Shown here piece after piece: positions 7,826-44,502 of a DNA stretch of 64,000 bases. The translations under genes were made by a program, and so were the position numbers. The notes under the pieces are model-generated. The model saw only the letters and a program-made list of their open reading frames with translations, made no database searches and had not been told where the DNA came from. Within the stretch, counting starts at the first letter, position 1. Every line of letters starts with the position of its first letter. Source of the DNA: a virus (lineage: Duplodnaviria > Heunggongvirae > Uroviricota > Caudoviricetes); IMG/VR virus record IMGVR_UViG_2565956726_000008. One strand, given 5' to 3'.

Positions 7826-8080
7826 TCACTTATGAGTGCCTTTCACGCCACATAACTTGTTATAGGCATGGTGCTCAACAATTAACCAAACCTTCAAATC
7901 TTCGCTAAACAGCCTCCAATCAAGATTGATATCCATTTTGTATCCGTAACCGTCGCGTAACTTTTTGGGGTAAACTTCTTTTCTCAGAAAGGCTTTAAGT
8001 AATTCCTTACCTTTCTTGATGATCCGGTCCTGTGCGTTTTTCTGTGCTTTCAGATTTCTGTCAATCGCTACCAGTTTCAT
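7826..8080 (-). CDS. hypothetical protein, possible RelE/YoeB-like toxin (moron cassette 2, distal gene)
   Basis: 84-aa minus-strand ORF; loose resemblance to YoeB/RelE-type toxins (QDRIIKKGKELLK; DWRLFSEDLKVWLIVEHHAY). Assignment is weak. Confidence 0.35.
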   Translation of the reverse strand: MKLVAIDRNLKAQKNAQDRIIKKGKELLKAFLRKEVYPKKLRDGYGYKMDINLDWRLFSEDLKVWLIVEHHAYNKLCGVKGTHK

Positions 8081-8253: not shown

Positions 8254-8420
8254 TTTGGGCCTCCTTCGTTGGTACTACTTTCTTCTTGCTTTCTATATAC
8301 ATCTTGTTGCGTGCTATGTGAAGCCATTTTGTAAACTAGCTATAATCATTGTGACAATGATCTTATTTTTCGCGTAGAAGCGCGTAAAGATATATACAAA
8401 ATGTAACTTGTGGGGGTTTT

Positions 8421-17302: not shown

Positions 17303-19099
17303 ATGATTTACACAACAGGCACTATAGCTGTTAGCGGAAACACAGTTACCGGGGCAGGGACTGAATTCAACGCCGCATTATCTCTGATCAGAGTGGGTTG
17401 CACTCTTATTGCCATTAGCGATCCGGTGCAGATTTTTTCAATCACAAAGGTAAAAAGCGCAACAAGTTTGTCGGTAACTCCTGCGGCAAGTCCGGCTATT
17501 CCGGCTGGAACTAAATTTAGCATCCTGCTTTCAGATTCGATCTCTGTGGATGGTCTTGCTCAGGATGTTGCCGAAACACTGCGTTACTACCAGGGCAAAG
17601 AATCAGAAATAGCTGACGCTGTGGAGTTTTTCAGCGACAACAAAGATGTGATTTCAGCATCAAAATTAGCATTAGCATCAGCTACCACTGCAACCAATGC
17701 GGCAACAACAGCGACAAGCGCCGCCGATTCAGCCAAGACATACAGAGACGAAGCCCACGAATACGCCAATCAGACCGCACAGCCTTACGCGTATGTTTTG
17801 CAACCGCTGCCGGACGTATGGATACCGTTTAACGATTCTCTCGATATGATCACGGGCTACGGCCCTGGTACTAAAAAAGTAACCATTAATGGGGAAGAAA
17901 AAACAATATCATCAGATAAAGTTGTTTCTTTCTCACGCGCAAGCACTGCTACTTACATTAACAAATCAGGTGTTTTAACTGTGGCTGGTATTAATGAGCC
18001 ACGTTTTGAACGCGAAGGATTACTGATTGAGGGGACGCGCACAAACCTGTTAATAAACAGTACAGACCCTTCGAAGTGGAATAAGTCAACTTCACTGGAC
18101 GTTACAGAAACAGGCACAGATAGTTTTGGGTTTAATTATGGCCGGTTTGTCGTACAGGATTCGATTGTTGGTACAAGTAAAGCGCATACCATTATCGGAC
18201 TGTATTCGAGTGCCGGAGGGGTTGATACTTCAGGGGACGAAAAGCATGTAACTATATCCTGTCGGGTAAAAAGTGAAGTTGATAATATCGCCGTTCGTAT
18301 TTTATTTGAACATTATGATGGGGAGGTAAGGACATCAATAGGAGCAGCAAACCTGAACCTTACCACCCGCATAATTAGCAAGACAGGTCAGACAAGCCGT
18401 GTTACAGCAAGGTCTGTTAAGGATGATGCAACTGGCTGGATATTTTTTGAGGCTACATTAAAAGCAGATACAACAGAAAATACGGTTGGTGGTTTCGTCC
18501 AGTATTCTCCGGATACAGGTCAGATGGTGGCATCAGGGGATTGTCTCGATGTAACCACTCCACAGATTGAGGCTGGTGCAGGCGCATCATCTTTTATTGT
18601 TACGGGGTCGGCACCAGCAACGCGGGCAAGCGATATGGTGACAGTCCCAATCAAGAATAACCTTTATAATCTTCCTTTTACGGTTCTTTGTGAGGTACAT
18701 AAGAACTGGTATAAAACGCCAAATGCAGCGCCGCGTGTTTTTGATACCGGCGGTCATCAAACCGGAGCGGCGATCGTAATGGGGTTTGGTTCATCAGGTG
18801 GGTACGACGGTTTTCCGTATTGTGATATAGGTGGTTCAAACCGACGAATAAATGAAAATGCCGGGCTGGAAAAAATACTTATTGGTATGCGGGTAAAGTC
18901 CGAACGGTCCACATGTGTAGTCAGTAACGGTAAGTTAAGCAGCGAAACAAAAACAACCTGGACTTATATTCAAAGCTCCGCAACTATTCGTATCGGTGGT
19001 CAGACAACGACAGGACAACGTCATTTATTTGGTCATGTTAGAAATTTTCGAGTATGGCATAAGGCATTAACTGATGCGCAATTAAGCGAAATTGTTTAA
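17303..19099 (+). CDS. tail fibre protein with LamG-like (jelly-roll) C-terminal domain, putative
   Basis: 598 aa; Ala/Thr-rich shaft segment (ASATTATNAATTATSAADSAKT); C-terminal NFRVWHKALTDAQLSEI resembles LamG-type domains in phage fibre proteins. Confidence 0.55.
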   Translation: MIYTTGTIAVSGNTVTGAGTEFNAALSLIRVGCTLIAISDPVQIFSITKVKSATSLSVTPAASPAIPAGTKFSILLSDSISVDGLAQDVAETLRYYQGKESEIADAVEFFSDNKDVISASKLALASATTATNAATTATSAADSAKTYRDEAHEYANQTAQPYAYVLQPLPDVWIPFNDSLDMITGYGPGTKKVTINGEEKTISSDKVVSFSRASTATYINKSGVLTVAGINEPRFEREGLLIEGTRTNLLINSTDPSKWNKSTSLDVTETGTDSFGFNYGRFVVQDSIVGTSKAHTIIGLYSSAGGVDTSGDEKHVTISCRVKSEVDNIAVRILFEHYDGEVRTSIGAANLNLTTRIISKTGQTSRVTARSVKDDATGWIFFEATLKADTTENTVGGFVQYSPDTGQMVASGDCLDVTTPQIEAGAGASSFIVTGSAPATRASDMVTVPIKNNLYNLPFTVLCEVHKNWYKTPNAAPRVFDTGGHQTGAAIVMGFGSSGGYDGFPYCDIGGSNRRINENAGLEKILIGMRVKSERSTCVVSNGKLSSETKTTWTYIQSSATIRIGGQTTTGQRHLFGHVRNFRVWHKALTDAQLSEIV

Positions 19100-19109
19100 G
19101 GTGGTTAAC

Positions 19110-19376
19110 ATGAAAGACGTTAGCTTGCAATTTACTGACAAACAGCAATACAACGACATTGTGATTAATAGCGGCTGGCTGGATGCCAATTGGTCAACCG
19201 TGTTTATTGATGATATCGGTTTTGTCCTTGTATTCGACGATCCAGAAAGCGAGACACCTGTACTTATTGGGAAAAAAGGTTATTACGTCAACGTGCGTAT
19301 AACTGGTGACGATGTTGATATTTCTCAGCTTGAGCCTTTCATCGTTCCAGATCCAGGCGTCCGCGCATGGGCTTAA
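19110..19376 (+). CDS. hypothetical protein downstream of tail fibre (possible fibre assembly/accessory)
   Basis: 88 aa from ATG at 19110 with AAGGTGG RBS, starting 11 nt after the fibre gene stop. Confidence 0.4.
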   Translation: MKDVSLQFTDKQQYNDIVINSGWLDANWSTVFIDDIGFVLVFDDPESETPVLIGKKGYYVNVRITGDDVDISQLEPFIVPDPGVRAWA

Positions 19377-19418
19377 TGATGCGGCAGTGATAGCATGGTG
19401 ATGTTGAAAGCATCGCCG

Positions 19419-19450
19419 AGAAACGAGGCTAACGCCTCGTTTCTTTTTGT
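19419..19450 (+). terminator. rho-independent terminator at end of prophage A late operon
   Basis: gaaacgaggctaacgcctcgtttc hairpin followed by TTTTTGT. Confidence 0.6.
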
Positions 19451-19823
19451 GTACCAAATAGTGACCAAATATCAAAAACTAAAATCAAAAACAACATAAC
19501 ATTATGTTTTATAAATGATTATTCGTTACACTAATCATTCCAGACAGGACTGGTGAGTAAGTCCAGGGTATTGAAGTTGTGCGTAATCATTGAGATCCCG
19601 TTATTTTTATCAATTTTTGTTGCTATCCGATCGCAAAAAAGCCACGTCATATGATCAGATAATTCTGATAATGATAGACGCTATTTAACACTTCACACGG
19701 TTTGTATATGGAAAAGCATTTTGCTTTTTGTATTCAATTTAGACAGAATTTTATTAATCATTTCAGGGTAATGGGGTGATGAGATGTTGCGTAACAGGGC
19801 CAGAAGGCTAGACTACAAAATAA

Positions 19824-36344: not shown

Positions 36345-37118
36345 TTAGAACTGTTCATTGCCATCGAGGTTAGGTAGCATAATTTTTTCAATCAAGGCGA
36401 GAGCCTTTTTGTCCCGGTCAGCGAAGTATTTCGGGGCATATTGCGGCAACCAAATATTGTTAAAATGTTCTTTGAAATCTGCTAAATATTCATTTGGGTA
36501 CAGCCTTGCAGGGTATACGCGACCATCGGGATATTCATGGTCATAGGTAGGGAATGTTTTGGGTTCTACGTTTCTATTATCTCTTAACCATTGTGAAAAT
36601 ACTCTTCCTTGTGAAATGTCAGGAACCATTTTTTCTGGGAGTGTGTACCCTGCTTGTTCAAGAGGTGCAACCAAGTTGAATGTCAGTTCATTAAGAATAG
36701 AAAAGTGCGTGTGAGGAATTCTACTACGATTAACCATGTACCGTTTTAAATGTACAGGCATTTCTGCTGTAGTTCTTTCCCCTGACATCCATTCACGAAC
36801 CCATCTTGAAACCTGGACTGCAAATTTGGGCGATAGCCACTGCGCTAGATTAATAGCGATGTCAGGATGCACCCATGTCCCTTGGTTTTCAGGTCTTCCA
36901 CCTTTAAATGATTGAATTAACTCCGATATGGGAATTCCCATATCGCGTGATAATTCGTCAAAAAACTCTTGAGTAGTTTTGAGTCTAGTGTAATCAGAGA
37001 GCAGTTTGCCCGCAGTTCTACACATTGATGTGGCGTTTATGTAACCATCTTTGGCACGTAAATGTATTATTTCGCCGTCAATTTCACGAGAAATCAAAGA
37101 TAATTGAAAGGATGTCAT
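36345..37118 (-). CDS. KilA-N domain protein with uncharacterised C-terminal domain
   Basis: 257 aa; N-terminal about 100 aa (EIDGEIIHLRAKDGYINATSMCRTAGKLLSDYTRL...WVHPDIAINLAQWL) matches the KilA-N DNA-binding fold pattern. Confidence 0.55.
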   Translation of the reverse strand: MTSFQLSLISREIDGEIIHLRAKDGYINATSMCRTAGKLLSDYTRLKTTQEFFDELSRDMGIPISELIQSFKGGRPENQGTWVHPDIAINLAQWLSPKFAVQVSRWVREWMSGERTTAEMPVHLKRYMVNRSRIPHTHFSILNELTFNLVAPLEQAGYTLPEKMVPDISQGRVFSQWLRDNRNVEPKTFPTYDHEYPDGRVYPARLYPNEYLADFKEHFNNIWLPQYAPKYFADRDKKALALIEKIMLPNLDGNEQF

Positions 37119-37640
37119 TGAAAATTCCTCAAGTTGGAGAGTTCTGGAACATTAAGGCGAGGTGGCAGTAATGCACCATCTGTAATCTTTTGATACTGAC
37201 GTAATCGGGCCTGATGTGCAACGCCTTGCAAGTATGTAACTCATTGAAAACGATCATTTTTATCTATTGACATCAAATGGCAAACTGTCATTGTGCGGCT
37301 ATGGCAAGTGGCAAATGCTTATAAATCATATGGATATAAATAGTACAGAAAGAGTTGTTTTCTCTAGGATATGAGTATACGCCCAATGCTGATTGGTTGA
37401 ATTTTGTTCTTGTTTTAAAGGGTAAGAGTTTAAAGTGTTGGCAGTGATGTATTGGATAGTTAGAATTGCTGTGGGTGCTTGAGGCTATCTGCCTCGGGCA
37501 TGAACACCAAAGGTAGATAGAGAAAAGCCCCAGTTAACATTACGCGTCCTGCAAGACGTTTAACATTAATCTGAGGCCATATCTATGCGACACATAGAGA
37601 TTAGCCTCTTACGGACCGAAAGGTCAAGGAGAAGCAGGCT

Positions 37641-37766
37641 ATGAAGCAGCAAAAGGCGATGTTAATCGCCCTGATCGTCATCTGTTTAACCGTCATAGTG
37701 ACGGCACTGGTAACGAGGAAAGACCTCTGCGAGGTACGAATCCGAACTGGCAGACGGAGGCTCTGA
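37641..37766 (+). CDS. Hok/Gef-family toxin homolog with divergent, truncated C-terminus (possible pseudogene)
   Basis: 41-aa ORF MKQQKAMLIALIVICLTVIVTALVTRKDLCEVRIRTGRRRL; first 37 residues match HokD/RelF-type toxins as I recall them, then the frame departs from the canonical ...TGQTEVAVFTAYE... end. Confidence 0.55.
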   Translation: MKQQKAMLIALIVICLTVIVTALVTRKDLCEVRIRTGRRRL

Positions 37767-37848
37767 TTCGTAGACTACTAATCTGAGTAAAAGACCCAGC
37801 GGGGAAAGAACCACGCCGGGACTAGTTAATAAGATATTTATAGCGTGG

Positions 37849-38190
37849 CTATTCTTTTTTTGCGGTATAGACTTTTTCGCCTGAGAAGTCTGGAGCTACC
37901 CAAAAGTTAATATTAAACTGAGCATCATCGCTTAGTTCAACACGGTGCCAGTATTGTGGTGGGCTTGTTGCAAAAGCGCCAGCATTAATGACTACTTTTA
38001 TCTCCGGTTCAGTAGCATTCTCATCAGCAAAACCATAATATGTTACAGTACCTTCCATCACGCATAACTGTCCAAAAACACCTGCTGCTGTATTATGATG
38101 TGTTAATAACGCTGAAGGTACGTTCTCTTTTGTGAAGAACGGAGTTGAGCGTTTGATTACCCAGTCTTTAGGAATTCTCTTGTGTGTCAT
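37849..38190 (-). CDS. YeaR-like cupin (DUF1971-type)
   Basis: 113 aa from MTHKRIPKDWVIKRSTPFF; alignable with my recollection of E. coli YeaR (RSTPF..., NIDFFVAP-type end). Confidence 0.5.
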   Translation of the reverse strand: MTHKRIPKDWVIKRSTPFFTKENVPSALLTHHNTAAGVFGQLCVMEGTVTYYGFADENATEPEIKVVINAGAFATSPPQYWHRVELSDDAQFNINFWVAPDFSGEKVYTAKKE

Positions 38191-38558
38191 AACCACCTCC
38201 CATAAAACATGCATTATAAATGCACCTTTTTGAGGGTTATGTCAAGCTGTTATGAAACACATAATTGATATGTTGATTAGAGGAGAAGATAGAATCAATA
38301 TGGTTGTTTTTCGTATAACTATTTGTTTTACTTTTAGTTTGTGCATTCTGTGTGTTAGGAATAACTTATTAAAGTTTAACTAAAAAATCTCGATATAGTC
38401 CGCATAGATTACTGTTACTGAATCTTATTGTGTGCATTAGTTGTGTTCTGAAATTTCAATTTAATTACTTATGATATATTTTTAACGATAAATGTTTTCC
38501 GGGTGAAAGACAGTGGGGGATGAGATAAGCAATATATCATTAATCTTGATTATTTCCA

Positions 38559-38618
38559 GGATGCCTTTACTGTGCATATAAATAAATCATATACGCATCA
38601 AATAATGTAAAGGCATCC
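38559..38618 (+). promoter_or_regulatory. 12-bp perfect inverted repeat followed by a T-run (hairpin / terminator-like)
   Basis: ggatgcctttac (38559-38570) and gtaaaggcatcc (38607-38618), 36-nt spacer, followed by TTTT. Confidence 0.35.
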
Positions 38619-39057
38619 TTTTAGATATATCTTATCAAATGTTAATGATTTGAGTGGGAAACATGATTCCAGAAACTAATCATGCGGCTACTTTATAAAA
38701 ATAATGCCCATATAAAACAGCCAGCGAAAAGGATTACGGATAAAAAAGGAGCGAGATGTGCATAGTTGTTATTTTCCATGTTTAACCACCTTAAATAATT
38801 GATGATGACGGGATGTGCATCTGTAATGCTTTTGTTGAAATGTTATGATAAAAAAGAACTTTTTCATAACATTAAAATGTAATTTATCTAATCGTTTTTA
38901 ATAATAAGTGTTGTATTTCTATCCTTGTATCAGCTATTTGATATGTAGTGTTTGTTCATGTTATGTGGAGCTTTACACCATAGCCAGTTTATTTATACTT
39001 TATTCGTCAGCCTGAACAACTGGCATCTGCTGCACTGCGCCATCGAGAGATTGAGAA

Positions 39058-40707: not shown

Positions 40708-41277
40708 ATGAGAGAACTACCTAAAGATTATTTTTTAGGAGTAGATGATGAGCTCGTCGATTATCTTGAAAAACAAGGGGAAGAGACGATACGAGAGATT
40801 CATCTTTCTAACAAAACCAATGTTGAGAATGGATACAAACTTCTGAACATTCAGATTGTTGGAATTGGTTCATCTTTTTTATTGCTGACACAGAAAACTA
40901 ATTTCGATTTTCTCACCGCCGGAATTACCACATTTACATTACTATGGACATGGTGCGCCATTTACTTGGTATGTACTGGTTTATCTGTGAAGGTTAGGGG
41001 CCTGATCAATGCCCCTCCTGATCATATATATCATGAAAAATATAAGGATATGGAGCCCTCGAGCTTTAAAATATTCGCTGATGCAGGATATTTAGGACCT
41101 GATAAGTTATTGCCGCTTATACGAAGGTATCGCCTTGTTGACTTGAGTGATACAGCAAGAGAGTTACTGTTGGAAAATGAGAAAATCCGCACGAGTCTCG
41201 ATAAAGCAAGGATGTATACCATCCTTGCTCCGGTAGCGGCGATGTTTATCTCGGCTGTTTTTTTATATGTTCAATGA
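40708..41277 (+). CDS. predicted membrane protein (moron between Q and lysis genes), function unknown
   Basis: 189 aa; GGAGGTGAG RBS; hydrophobic helices (GIGSSFLLLTQ, FTLLWTWCAIYLVCTGL, ILAPVAAMFISAVFLYV); no family recognised. Confidence 0.5.
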   Translation: MRELPKDYFLGVDDELVDYLEKQGEETIREIHLSNKTNVENGYKLLNIQIVGIGSSFLLLTQKTNFDFLTAGITTFTLLWTWCAIYLVCTGLSVKVRGLINAPPDHIYHEKYKDMEPSSFKIFADAGYLGPDKLLPLIRRYRLVDLSDTARELLLENEKIRTSLDKARMYTILAPVAAMFISAVFLYVQ

Positions 41278-43044: not shown

Positions 43045-44502
43045 ATGAATACATCTCATGTAAGAGTTGTTACTCATATGTGTGGGTTCCTGGTTTGGCT
43101 CTATAGTCTTTCAATGTTGCCACCAATGGTTGTAGCATTGTTTTATAAAGAAAAAAGCCTGTTCGTTTTCTTTATAACTTTCGTTATATTTTTTTGCATT
43201 GGTGGCGGAGCGTGGTATACAACTAAGAAATCTGGCATTCAATTACGTACCCGTGATGGGTTTATTATAATTGTAATGTTTTGGATTTTGTTTTCTGTTA
43301 TTAGTGCATTCCCTTTATGGATTGACTCAGAACTTAATTTAACGTTCATTGATGCTCTGTTTGAAGGGGTTTCTGGAATAACAACAACAGGAGCAACTGT
43401 AATTGATGATGTTAGTTCATTACCTCGGGCATATTTGTACTATCGGTCACAGTTAAATTTTATAGGTGGTTTAGGAGTTATTGTTCTGGCGGTTGCTGTA
43501 TTGCCATTATTGGGTATTGGTGGTGCAAAGCTTTATCAGTCAGAAATGCCGGGGCCATTTAAGGATGACAAACTCACTCCCCGCCTGGCCGATACGTCAC
43601 GGACACTGTGGATAACTTATTCTTTATTAGGTATTGCTTGTATTGTCTGTTATAGACTTGCAGGAATGCCTTTGTTTGATGCTATTTGTCACGGGATTTC
43701 CACAGTTTCGCTTGGTGGTTTCTCAACTCATAGCGAGAGTATCGGATATTTTAATAACTATTTGGTTGAGCTGGTGGCTGGTTCTTTTTCCCTGCTATCG
43801 GCTTTCAACTTCACTCTTTGGTATATTGTTATTAGCAGGAAAACGATAAAACCTTTAATCAGAGATATTGAACTTCGTTTCTTTCTGTTAATAGCCTTAG
43901 GGGTGATCATTGTTACCTCTTTCCAGGTCTGGCATATAGGTATGTATGACTTGCATGGAAGTTTTATTCATTCGTTTTTTCTTGCCAGCTCCATGCTCAC
44001 TGATAATGGTTTAGCTACGCAGGATTATGCAAGTTGGCCCACGCACACGATAGTGTTTTTGCTGTTGTCAAGTTTCTTTGGGGGATGTATAGGTTCAACT
44101 TGTGGTGGAATTAAGTCACTTCGATTTCTTATACTTTTCAAACAAAGCAAACACGAGATAAATCAGCTTTCTCATCCCAGAGCGTTGTTGAGTGTAAATG
44201 TAGGAGGGAAGATAGTTACAGATCGTGTAATGAGGTCTGTATGGAGTTTCTTTTTTCTTTATACTCTCTTCACGGTGTTTTTTATACTGGTGTTAAATGG
44301 TATGGGATATGATTTTCTTACATCATTTGCAACAGTGGCTGCATGTATTAATAATATGGGATTAGGTTTTGGGGCTACTGCATCGTCATTCGGAGTGCTT
44401 AATGACATTGCAAAATGTTTAATGTGCATAGCTATGATTCTTGGTCGCCTTGAAATTTATCCTGTTATTATATTGTTTTCAGGTTTTTTTTGGCGCTCCT
44501 AA
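43045..44502 (+). CDS. trkG: Trk system potassium uptake protein TrkG
   Basis: 485 aa from MNTSHVRVVTHMCGFLVW; matches recollection of K-12 Rac trkG; AT-rich, multi-TM. Confidence 0.9.
   Translation: MNTSHVRVVTHMCGFLVWLYSLSMLPPMVVALFYKEKSLFVFFITFVIFFCIGGGAWYTTKKSGIQLRTRDGFIIIVMFWILFSVISAFPLWIDSELNLTFIDALFEGVSGITTTGATVIDDVSSLPRAYLYYRSQLNFIGGLGVIVLAVAVLPLLGIGGAKLYQSEMPGPFKDDKLTPRLADTSRTLWITYSLLGIACIVCYRLAGMPLFDAICHGISTVSLGGFSTHSESIGYFNNYLVELVAGSFSLLSAFNFTLWYIVISRKTIKPLIRDIELRFFLLIALGVIIVTSFQVWHIGMYDLHGSFIHSFFLASSMLTDNGLATQDYASWPTHTIVFLLLSSFFGGCIGSTCGGIKSLRFLILFKQSKHEINQLSHPRALLSVNVGGKIVTDRVMRSVWSFFFLYTLFTVFFILVLNGMGYDFLTSFATVAACINNMGLGFGATASSFGVLNDIAKCLMCIAMILGRLEIYPVIILFSGFFWRS

Follow-up and report, generated by a model that had tools for sequence, protein, structure and literature searches.

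The DUF1971 gene and its cassette

The stretch of DNA analysed here, a window of 64,000 nucleotides filed as a virus of the Caudoviricetes under the IMG/VR record IMGVR_UViG_2565956726_000008, is Escherichia coli chromosome with a complete Rac-type prophage at ttcA, and our subject is a small gene of the DUF1971 family in the cargo region of that prophage, together with a predicted operator, just upstream of the gene, for the host repressor NsrR, which responds to nitric oxide (NO). Rac is usually seen as a cryptic relic. In this window the prophage reads, in order, int/xis, ralR, recET, kilR, sieB, repressor and cro-like genes, and replication genes, followed by the cargo region, to the right of which lie DUF1367, DUF1364 and Q-like genes, lysis genes, trkG, terminase, capsid and tail genes. 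The DUF1971 gene occupies positions 37849 to 38190, stop codon included, on the minus strand, opposite to the flanking phage early-right genes. It is convergent with a sok/hok locus (37473-37766, plus strand), where the sok model of Rfam scores 101.5 bits against a cutoff of 59 at 37473-37643, the sole RNA element recovered by the Rfam search. A first-pass annotation, made from the sequence of the window, had placed a 113-residue, minus-strand protein at 37849-38190, in prophage cargo next to a hok-like locus, and in coordinates, length, strand and setting it was right. RefSeq already annotates the gene as encoding a DUF1971 domain-containing protein.

The reading frame, on the minus strand, opens with an ATG at 38190, closes with a stop codon at 37851-37849 and specifies 113 amino acids (MTHKRIPKDW...AKKE), a product of the STM1808-type subfamily described below. 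A Shine-Dalgarno sequence read from the DNA, GGAGGTGG, lies at 38193-38200 on the minus strand and ends 2 nt before the ATG, and the GGAGG block in this ribosome-binding region is kept across the orthologs of our promoter alignment. A mechanical list of open reading frames (ORFs) gives a 121-residue frame from an ATG at 38214, which we rejected. That ATG has no ribosome-binding site and lies inside the predicted operator, and the orthologs start later, 80 of 80 of them at MTHK or MSH, so that 113 residues is the correct length. The 121-residue form, whose extra codons fall at 38191-38214 of the window, is annotated in several databases and phage records (e.g., P0001 and ON470614), where the start is almost certainly mis-called.

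Relative to the phage Rac-SA53, the whole cassette spans 37806-38992: the last position homologous to Rac-SA53 before it is 37805 and the first after it is 38993, and Rac-SA53 has rem in that place. Upstream of the gene, an AT-rich non-coding spacer (38229-38992, ~760 bp, 28-32% GC, longest ORF at most 43 amino acids) extends to the DUF1367 gene; it travels with the gene, lying beside it in 451 genomes, is absent from Rac-SA53, and yielded neither an Rfam match nor homology to chromosomal ortholog loci. The gene itself has 41% GC (32% at third codon positions), and the flanks have about 50%. Downstream, 26-61 nt past the stop codon, a hairpin at 37788-37823 on the minus strand (core stem 37820-37795, then UCUUUUA) may be a terminator, which the convergent hok transcript would share at its own 3′ end, and a 101-nt stretch that contains it has a minimum free energy of -26.4 kcal/mol (z -2.86); a strict terminator scan made no call at 37788-37823 because the loop is too long. 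An insert between conserved phage genes, missing from Rac-SA53, deviant in composition and equipped with a -35 hexamer, an operator and a hairpin, the locus is best read as a self-contained prophage moron with a predicted promoter. The first-pass suggestion of a lysogenic-conversion gene is thus in keeping with an anatomy (insertion, composition, orientation) that looks like that of a moron.

A predicted NsrR operator and its conservation

The predicted operator is an 11-1-11 inverted repeat, AAGGTGCATTTATAATGCATGTT on the gene strand, at 38206-38228, centred 27 bp upstream of the ATG and with its edge 16 nt from it. AAGGTGCATTTATAATGCATGTT was first recognised as an NsrR-type site by its likeness to the consensus AANATGCATTTNAAATGCATNTT, whose single match in the window, at 38206-38228, has 2 mismatches, where chance would give 0.00 matches. 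Published work shows that the site of E. coli NsrR is an 11-1-11 inverted repeat and that NsrR regulates yeaR (PMC5320621). On a weight matrix built from the 26 distinct sites among the 27 predicted in strain CFT073 (PMC5320621, Table 4), AAGGTGCATTTATAATGCATGTT scores 26.1 bits, more than 25 of the 26 training sites and exceeded only by ytfE, while the chromosomal yeaR operator, at 22.3 bits, scores below it. The next best position within the window reaches 20.4 bits, and none of 1.86 million positions in shuffled local AT-rich DNA reaches 26.1. The link to nitrosative stress that had been drawn from the likeness to YeaR is strengthened by this near-consensus predicted operator, which travels with the gene. 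The operator is of the NsrR type by prediction, and from it we infer NsrR binding in vivo and induction by NO. Strain-specific NsrR targets in accessory DNA have a precedent in 10 CFT073-specific sites found by chromatin immunoprecipitation sequencing; a literature search returned no description linking NsrR to a Rac-type prophage gene.

The second-best NsrR-like site of the window, AAGATATATACAAAATGTAACTT (8387-8409, 20.4 bits), lies in a different phage-like element, about 100 bp from a 14.9-bit site (together spanning 8283-8409) and within an insert of small minus-strand ORFs (84 amino acids at 7826-8080; about 51 amino acids starting at 8254) between a tape-measure gene and a minor-tail gene (8421). 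This pair could be due to chance or could mark a second NO-responsive moron.

A -35-like hexamer, TTGACA, lies at 38240-38245 on the minus strand and aligns with the TTTACA/TTGAC hexamer that orthologs have at the same fixed distance from the box (TTGACA in the phage, TTTACA in the Kluyvera clade). The candidate -10 region (38213-38224, minus strand) offers either TGcATTTAT, with an 18-nt spacer, or TATAAT, with a 21-nt spacer, and falls wholly within the operator; in Kluyvera-clade orthologs a 17-nt spacer puts a -10 element, TATTTT, in the left half of the box. Because all -10 candidates lie inside the operator, promoter occlusion is the natural reading. This view of the promoter relied on cross-genus alignment and folding in place of a consensus scan. 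Control by NarL, as for yeaR, was considered and ruled out: no 7-2-7 site with three or fewer mismatches to the NarL consensus lies upstream of the prophage gene in 38190-38992, and the window-wide count of such sites is that expected by chance.

Conservation was examined in 80 genomic ortholog loci, drawn from one-genome-per-species representatives. About 55 of the 56 enterobacterial loci, which include Kluyvera, Leclercia, Citrobacter, the Klebsiella oxytoca group, Raoultella, Salmonella arizonae and diarizonae, and Pantoea, have an NsrR site of 20-30 bits centred 27-39 bp 5′ of the ATG, which in those ~55 is also the best-scoring site within each ~8-kb locus; the exception is one Leclercia locus, with 12.2 bits and an apparent 1-bp indel. 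When 20 promoter sequences are aligned, most of the invariant upstream columns belong to the box and a few to the -35 region and the ribosome-binding site. Between the prophage locus and the chromosomal orthologs, DNA homology (~73%) starts at the stop codon and breaks off at 38228/38229, exactly where the operator has its outer edge. Most Vibrionaceae loci have no NsrR box adjoining the gene, apparently because it is co-oriented there behind norVW, and three Photobacterium loci have a box of their own.

A Fur-box-like sequence, GATAATGAGATTCATTATC, is found in part of the ortholog set, ~83-85 bp 5′ of the ATG and just upstream of the -35 hexamer, with 2-5 mismatches to the 19-bp consensus. 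Its carriers are Kluyvera, Leclercia, Pantoea, Buttiauxella and Silvania orthologs (loci L004-L006, L015 and L022-L024 of our set among them) and two Photobacterium loci (L062, L075), and its pairing with the NsrR box suggests dual control by iron and NO in those orthologs. Fur control of the prophage gene was rejected, the box being lost there, with 8 mismatches to the consensus.

Protein subfamily, genomic contexts and distribution

The product matches Pfam DUF1971 (PF09313) over all 80 profile positions (1-80) at 91.6 bits against a cutoff of 23.1 (E 3e-26). Sequence searches of solved structures give as best match 3dl3 (E 2.6e-59), followed by E. coli YeaR (3bb6, E 4.6e-25, 44% identity) and the N-terminal domain of Haemophilus influenzae TehB (3m70, E 3.7e-10). 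An AlphaFold model of the 113-residue protein, made with 21 sequences (mean predicted local distance difference test score 90.9), is nearly all beta with one short helix and superposes on the same three structures with template-modelling (TM) scores of 0.93, 0.82 and 0.74, respectively. The family assignment in the first-pass annotation, a YeaR-related DUF1971 cupin, is borne out by these comparisons, and the alignment with YeaR that it had left to be made proves significant, as does that with the TehB-associated DUF1971 domain. After the DUF1971 members, Foldseek returns weak matches to metal-dependent cupins and JmjC proteins (TM 0.46-0.57, probability 1.00). The Pfam cupin sequence models stay below cutoff (Cupin_2, 12.3 bits vs. 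27.2; Cupin_8, 15.2 vs. 27.4), and the canonical cupin metal motif HxH...E is absent on inspection of the protein, where only a His32/His82 pair is present. On the evidence of the model, then, this is a YeaR-related DUF1971 protein with a cupin-like fold, a cupin by fold and not by sequence models. His32 and His82 are invariant in both of our protein alignments and conserved in YeaR, and they probably form a metal site; the Salmonella protein STM1808 is reportedly a zinc protein in which His32 and His82 are needed for zinc binding and for NO resistance.

A database search returned 467 relatives at E <= 1e-10, the best 120 of which are 71-100% identical to the prophage protein. Among these 120, E. 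coli and metagenomic variants are at 88-96% and the others, at 71-83%, come from Salmonella, Klebsiella, Raoultella, Vibrio, Aliivibrio, Photobacterium, Shewanella, Agarivorans and Neptunomonas; in the alignment, identity is 77-82% to enterobacterial and Vibrionaceae proteins versus 44% to K-12 YeaR. The subfamily is chromosomal in Salmonella, Citrobacter, Klebsiella and Kluyvera. In Salmonella arizonae the order is NhaB-DsbB-DUF1971-...-YcgN, with NhaB and DsbB confirmed by Pfam, and DsbB stands immediately upstream of the ortholog in 31 loci. This dsbB-adjacent slot we take to be the position of STM1808, from the LT2 numbering (STM1806 nhaB, STM1807 dsbB), and the prophage gene is, as judged from sequence and synteny, the counterpart of Salmonella STM1808. 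In E. coli K-12 the dsbB-ycgN slot holds umuDC-hlyE, so the E. coli core genome lacks an STM1808-type gene.

Two papers that cite Karlinsey 2012 place STM1808, a putative cytoplasmic protein, in the NsrR regulon and ascribe to it a part in virulence (PMC7527575; PMC7082413). Earlier, a “tehB homolog” had been predicted as an NsrR target in enterobacteria and Photobacterium profundum (Rodionov et al., 2005; PMC1274295), and Salmonella tehAB was then found not to be NsrR-regulated (1.1-fold; Gilberthorpe et al., 2007; PMC2884951). The “tehB homolog” prediction presumably concerned this DUF1971 gene.

Outside the enteric bacteria the gene keeps similar company. In 15 loci from Vibrio, Aliivibrio, Photobacterium, Shewanella and Agarivorans (L043-L045, L048, L049, L052, L058, L061, L064, L066, L068-L070, L077 and L078) it comes straight after norV and norW in the same orientation, separated from them by 23-258 bp and, in Aliivibrio, by a ferredoxin-reductase-like gene. 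The NCBIfam equivalog models identify the flavorubredoxin NO reductase at 973-979 bits (cutoff 711) and NorW at 518-570 bits (cutoff 392), and this adjacency is a strong guilt-by-association clue to the function of the family. In Neptunomonas (L063, 2966-4906; L055) the gene converges on an nsrR-like Rrf2 gene, whose product passes the Rrf2 superfamily model and, at 169 bits, falls below the NsrR equivalog cutoff of 182; here the DUF1971 gene forms a two-gene unit with an Fe-S protein behind an NsrR box of 22-24 bits, with 23.8 bits among the values, which is shared with a divergent gene that reads as YtfE/RIC-like from its sequence. Every context of the subfamily, be it NsrR box, norVW or nsrR adjacency, points to NO, and three of them together (the NsrR regulon, the norVW operon and, in one clade, the Fur-like box) raise the possibility of a metal-centre protein acting alongside NO reductase.

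Within E. coli, a nucleotide search found the gene and its promoter in 458 of 5,426 complete genomes, with this allele (at least 99% identity) in 103 and a second, at ~95.6%, in 354; the contiguous block of gene, spacer and DUF1367 gene is present in 451 of the 5,426. Among sequenced strains 8% carry the cassette, and avian pathogenic O78 as well as clinical isolates that produce carbapenemase are found among these carriers. Allele 2 was examined at three loci (E. coli fEC.1, avian pathogenic E. coli (APEC) E12049, and Shigella flexneri), all of which have the gene adjoining the DUF1367 gene, and in the two annotated E. coli strains, fEC.1 and APEC E12049, the host element is a Rac-type prophage. 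Neither prophage allele has lost the ribosome-binding site, the -35 hexamer or the operator. Between the alleles the proportions of nonsynonymous (pN) and synonymous (pS) differences are 0.004 and 0.092, a dN/dS ratio of 0.04, whereas against all sampled chromosomal orthologs pS is ~0.9, which is saturated, and pN ~0.1. These values describe an old prophage lineage under purifying selection and not a recent capture. Nucleotide identity is ~73% to Kluyvera, Pantoea and Enterobacter, and the box-to-ATG spacing and the aligned -35 hexamer favour a Kluyvera- or Leclercia-like source, but no donor can be named because all orthologs are saturated at synonymous sites. Only 3 of 50,697 phage records carry the gene (ON470614, ON470616 and ON470590), and these, being PHASTER-predicted prophages from carbapenemase-producing clinical isolates and not virions, are no evidence of inducibility. 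The first-pass annotation had called such a gene unusual, a label that is relative, given the count of genomes above and a gene already annotated in RefSeq.

Throughout, the DUF1971 gene is the constant element of a hotspot in which the left-hand cargo varies among strains. The slot between the DUF977 and DUF1971 genes of Rac-type prophages holds, in fEC.1 (L083, 8024-14274), BCCT transporter, DUF2254, LysR, gamma-glutamylcyclotransferase and MFS genes; in APEC E12049 (L084, 11162-14235), TetR, adenosine deaminase, NTP pyrophosphatase and SIR2 genes, which are defence-like; and in the present window, BstA and hok. The KilA-N protein beside hok (36345-37118, minus strand) is a BstA-type abortive-infection protein (PADLOC BstA, E 3e-21; phrog_6287, E 3e-89), which is why the left part of the cargo region reads as a defence slot. 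The Hok ORF (37641-37766) encodes only 41 amino acids and ends in ...RIRTGRRRL, as compared with 51 amino acids in Rac-SA53, and the toxin may be frameshifted or truncated here. Elsewhere in the window, a 189-residue ORF (40708-41277, plus strand) just 3′ of the Q-like antiterminator gene occupies a classical moron position; it has no Pfam or PADLOC match, its one match being phrog_11870, of unknown function, and a small convergent ORF overlaps its end. The trkG gene (~43045-44502) is known Rac cargo, and in the host flank (~17590-19600) dgcM (ydaM) is cut by an IS1 insertion.

Proposed regulation, rival readings and known systems

We think it likely that the DUF1971 gene is a moron that host NsrR would repress in the lysogen and NO would derepress, a degree of confidence that covers the regulatory part; metal binding and any benefit to fitness we infer. 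The cassette would consist of promoter, NsrR operator, ribosome-binding site, 113-residue ORF and hairpin, transcribed against the phage early-right operon. In a lysogen without NO, host [4Fe-4S]-NsrR would sit on the operator at 38206-38228 and, given that the plausible -10 hexamers all fall within it, would occlude RNA polymerase and keep the gene off. Nitrosylation of the NsrR cluster by NO would then release the repressor from the DNA and allow transcription independently of prophage induction. The product, a small cytoplasmic DUF1971 protein of the STM1808 type with a cupin fold and a putative His32/His82 metal site, would probably aid tolerance of nitrosative stress, by analogy with STM1808 and from the linkage of its family to norVW, and Rac-type prophages would thereby add an STM1808-type function alongside the more distant paralog YeaR.

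Several observations weigh against this proposal, and together they make up much of the case for a silent passenger, in which operator and ORF would be relics, silenced by H-NS or without a working promoter, and would contribute nothing in E. coli. A consensus promoter and terminator scan called neither a promoter nor a terminator at the gene; TTGACA lies 21 nt from the perfect TATAAT, which makes it uncertain which -10 element is in use; and the upstream DNA, at 28-32% GC, could be open to H-NS silencing. The commoner allele 2 has an operator, AACACGCATTT, with a degraded left half-site that brings it down to 20.7 bits, and truncated variants occur in some E. coli, among them a 68-residue form on 38 contigs. 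As for function, yeaR-yoaG was dispensable for the NO-scavenging activity studied in PMC5320621, and DUF1971 proteins may by that token have a subtle phenotype or none in E. coli. On the side of STM1808, its placement next to dsbB depends on the LT2 gene numbering along with the observed synteny, and zinc binding with a need for His32 and His82 is what Karlinsey 2012 reportedly found for it by mutagenesis. A silent passenger is nevertheless unlikely in our estimate: a dN/dS of 0.04 at ~9% synonymous divergence, an intact ORF in a block kept in 451 genomes, and a ribosome-binding site, -35 hexamer and operator in both alleles all argue against it, and the halt of ortholog DNA homology at the operator, with the Fur-like box gone, is the pattern expected of operator-specific constraint.

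The remaining rivals concern what the gene is. The first-pass annotation took it for a phage-carried paralog of chromosomal yeaR, and a captured copy or recent duplicate of that gene would explain the shared Pfam family and fold (3bb6, E 4.6e-25 and TM 0.82) as well as an NsrR box at both genes. Yet identity is 44% to YeaR against 72-83% to another subfamily, no yoaG follows, whereas yeaR-yoaG is an operon in K-12, the yeaR box lies 78 bp from its ATG and not 27, in an unrelated promoter, the prophage gene has no NarL site, and a distant-mode nucleotide search found 458 genomes only and no similarity in K-12; we dropped this reading as having next to no chance of being right. Nor do we see in the gene the tellurite-resistance determinant TehB, as some RefSeq, PDB and IMG names would have it, 3dl3 being deposited as “tellurite resistance protein TehB” and some RefSeq records reading “TehB family protein”. 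The N-domain of H. influenzae TehB is indeed homologous, but the protein reaches 48 bits on the NCBIfam TehB equivalog model, whose cutoff is 303, with only positions 11-106 of 289 matching, the SAM (S-adenosylmethionine)-methyltransferase domain that methylates tellurite is lacking, and the true Salmonella tehAB is not NsrR-regulated (1.1-fold; PMC2884951); the name was apparently transferred from the fused H. influenzae protein, and a TehB function is very improbable. Equally hard to credit is a role in phage biology, be it anti-phage defence, counter-defence or host takeover, which the BstA-type neighbour, hok/sok, the SIR2-containing cluster in other strains and the variable, defence-like left-hand cargo might suggest, as might the fact that the gene has a PHROG of its own. 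That PHROG (phrog_34268), however, has no assigned function, PADLOC gives no match for the protein, the 3 carriers among 50,697 phage records are all PHASTER-predicted prophages, the gene is constant and not variable in the hotspot, and its close relatives are all chromosomal, in housekeeping context, linked to dsbB, norVW or nsrR.

NsrR-regulated DUF1971 proteins and prophage morons were both already known; what is new, to go by the predicted site, is a prophage gene that carries its own NsrR switch. An NO-derepressed moron would be a clean and testable case of prophage cargo with a host-sensor site, one that would respond to an immune effector, NO, and not to phage induction. The analysis further corrects the misleading labels “TehB” and “YeaR-like” to the STM1808 subfamily, and, by comparison across gamma-proteobacteria, links this DUF1971 subfamily with the biology of NO. 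Should the gene prove protective against NO, Rac-type prophages would count as lysogenic-conversion elements that confer tolerance of nitrosative stress. More tentatively, and with doubts outweighing confidence, we suggest that they might spread an NO-inducible defence gene together with its NsrR switch in E. coli and Shigella, measurably improving survival under host-derived NO in macrophages, the inflamed gut or the urinary tract, which, if true, would explain why the cassette is the sole constant element of a fast-changing hotspot.

Among known systems the nearest is Salmonella STM1808, which shares with the prophage gene ~80% amino acid identity, a length of 113 residues, the invariant His32 and His82, a monocistronic layout and a strong NsrR box just 5′ of the ribosome-binding site. 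STM1808 differs in its place on the chromosome, where it comes straight after dsbB and the dsbB terminator, and in its box, centred 39 bp from the ATG, whereas the prophage copy has the box at 27 bp and lies in AT-rich DNA of a Rac-type prophage; since synonymous sites are saturated, the prophage gene is an old, separate lineage that did not come from Salmonella by recent transfer. E. coli YeaR (b1797) has the same Pfam family and fold, the two histidines and NsrR control, which for the prophage gene is predicted. Unlike the prophage protein, to which it is 44% identical, YeaR has 119 residues, its gene is followed by yoaG, and its operator, centred 78 bp from the ATG in an unrelated promoter, is weaker (about 22-24 bits). 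NarL activates the yeaR-yoaG operon, and the prophage gene has no NarL site; nor is there a yoaG-like (DUF1869) ORF downstream of it, the convergent hok lying there instead. The Aliivibrio (Vibrio) fischeri protein of 3dl3 (“TehB”) and its Vibrionaceae orthologs belong to the same subfamily, at 77-84% identity over ordered residues, but their genes lie behind norV-norW on the same strand without an NsrR box of their own and are presumably co-expressed with the NO reductase operon. Morons under host-regulator control have precedents in lambda bor and lom, Gifsy sodCI and the Fur-regulated stx1. Like the classical morons, the DUF1971 cassette reads as an autonomous transcription unit between phage modules, deviant in composition, missing from related phages and presumably expressed from a repressed prophage; unlike them, it has a predicted NsrR operator as its control element, and operator and coding sequence are the only part of it with DNA homology to chromosomal orthologs.

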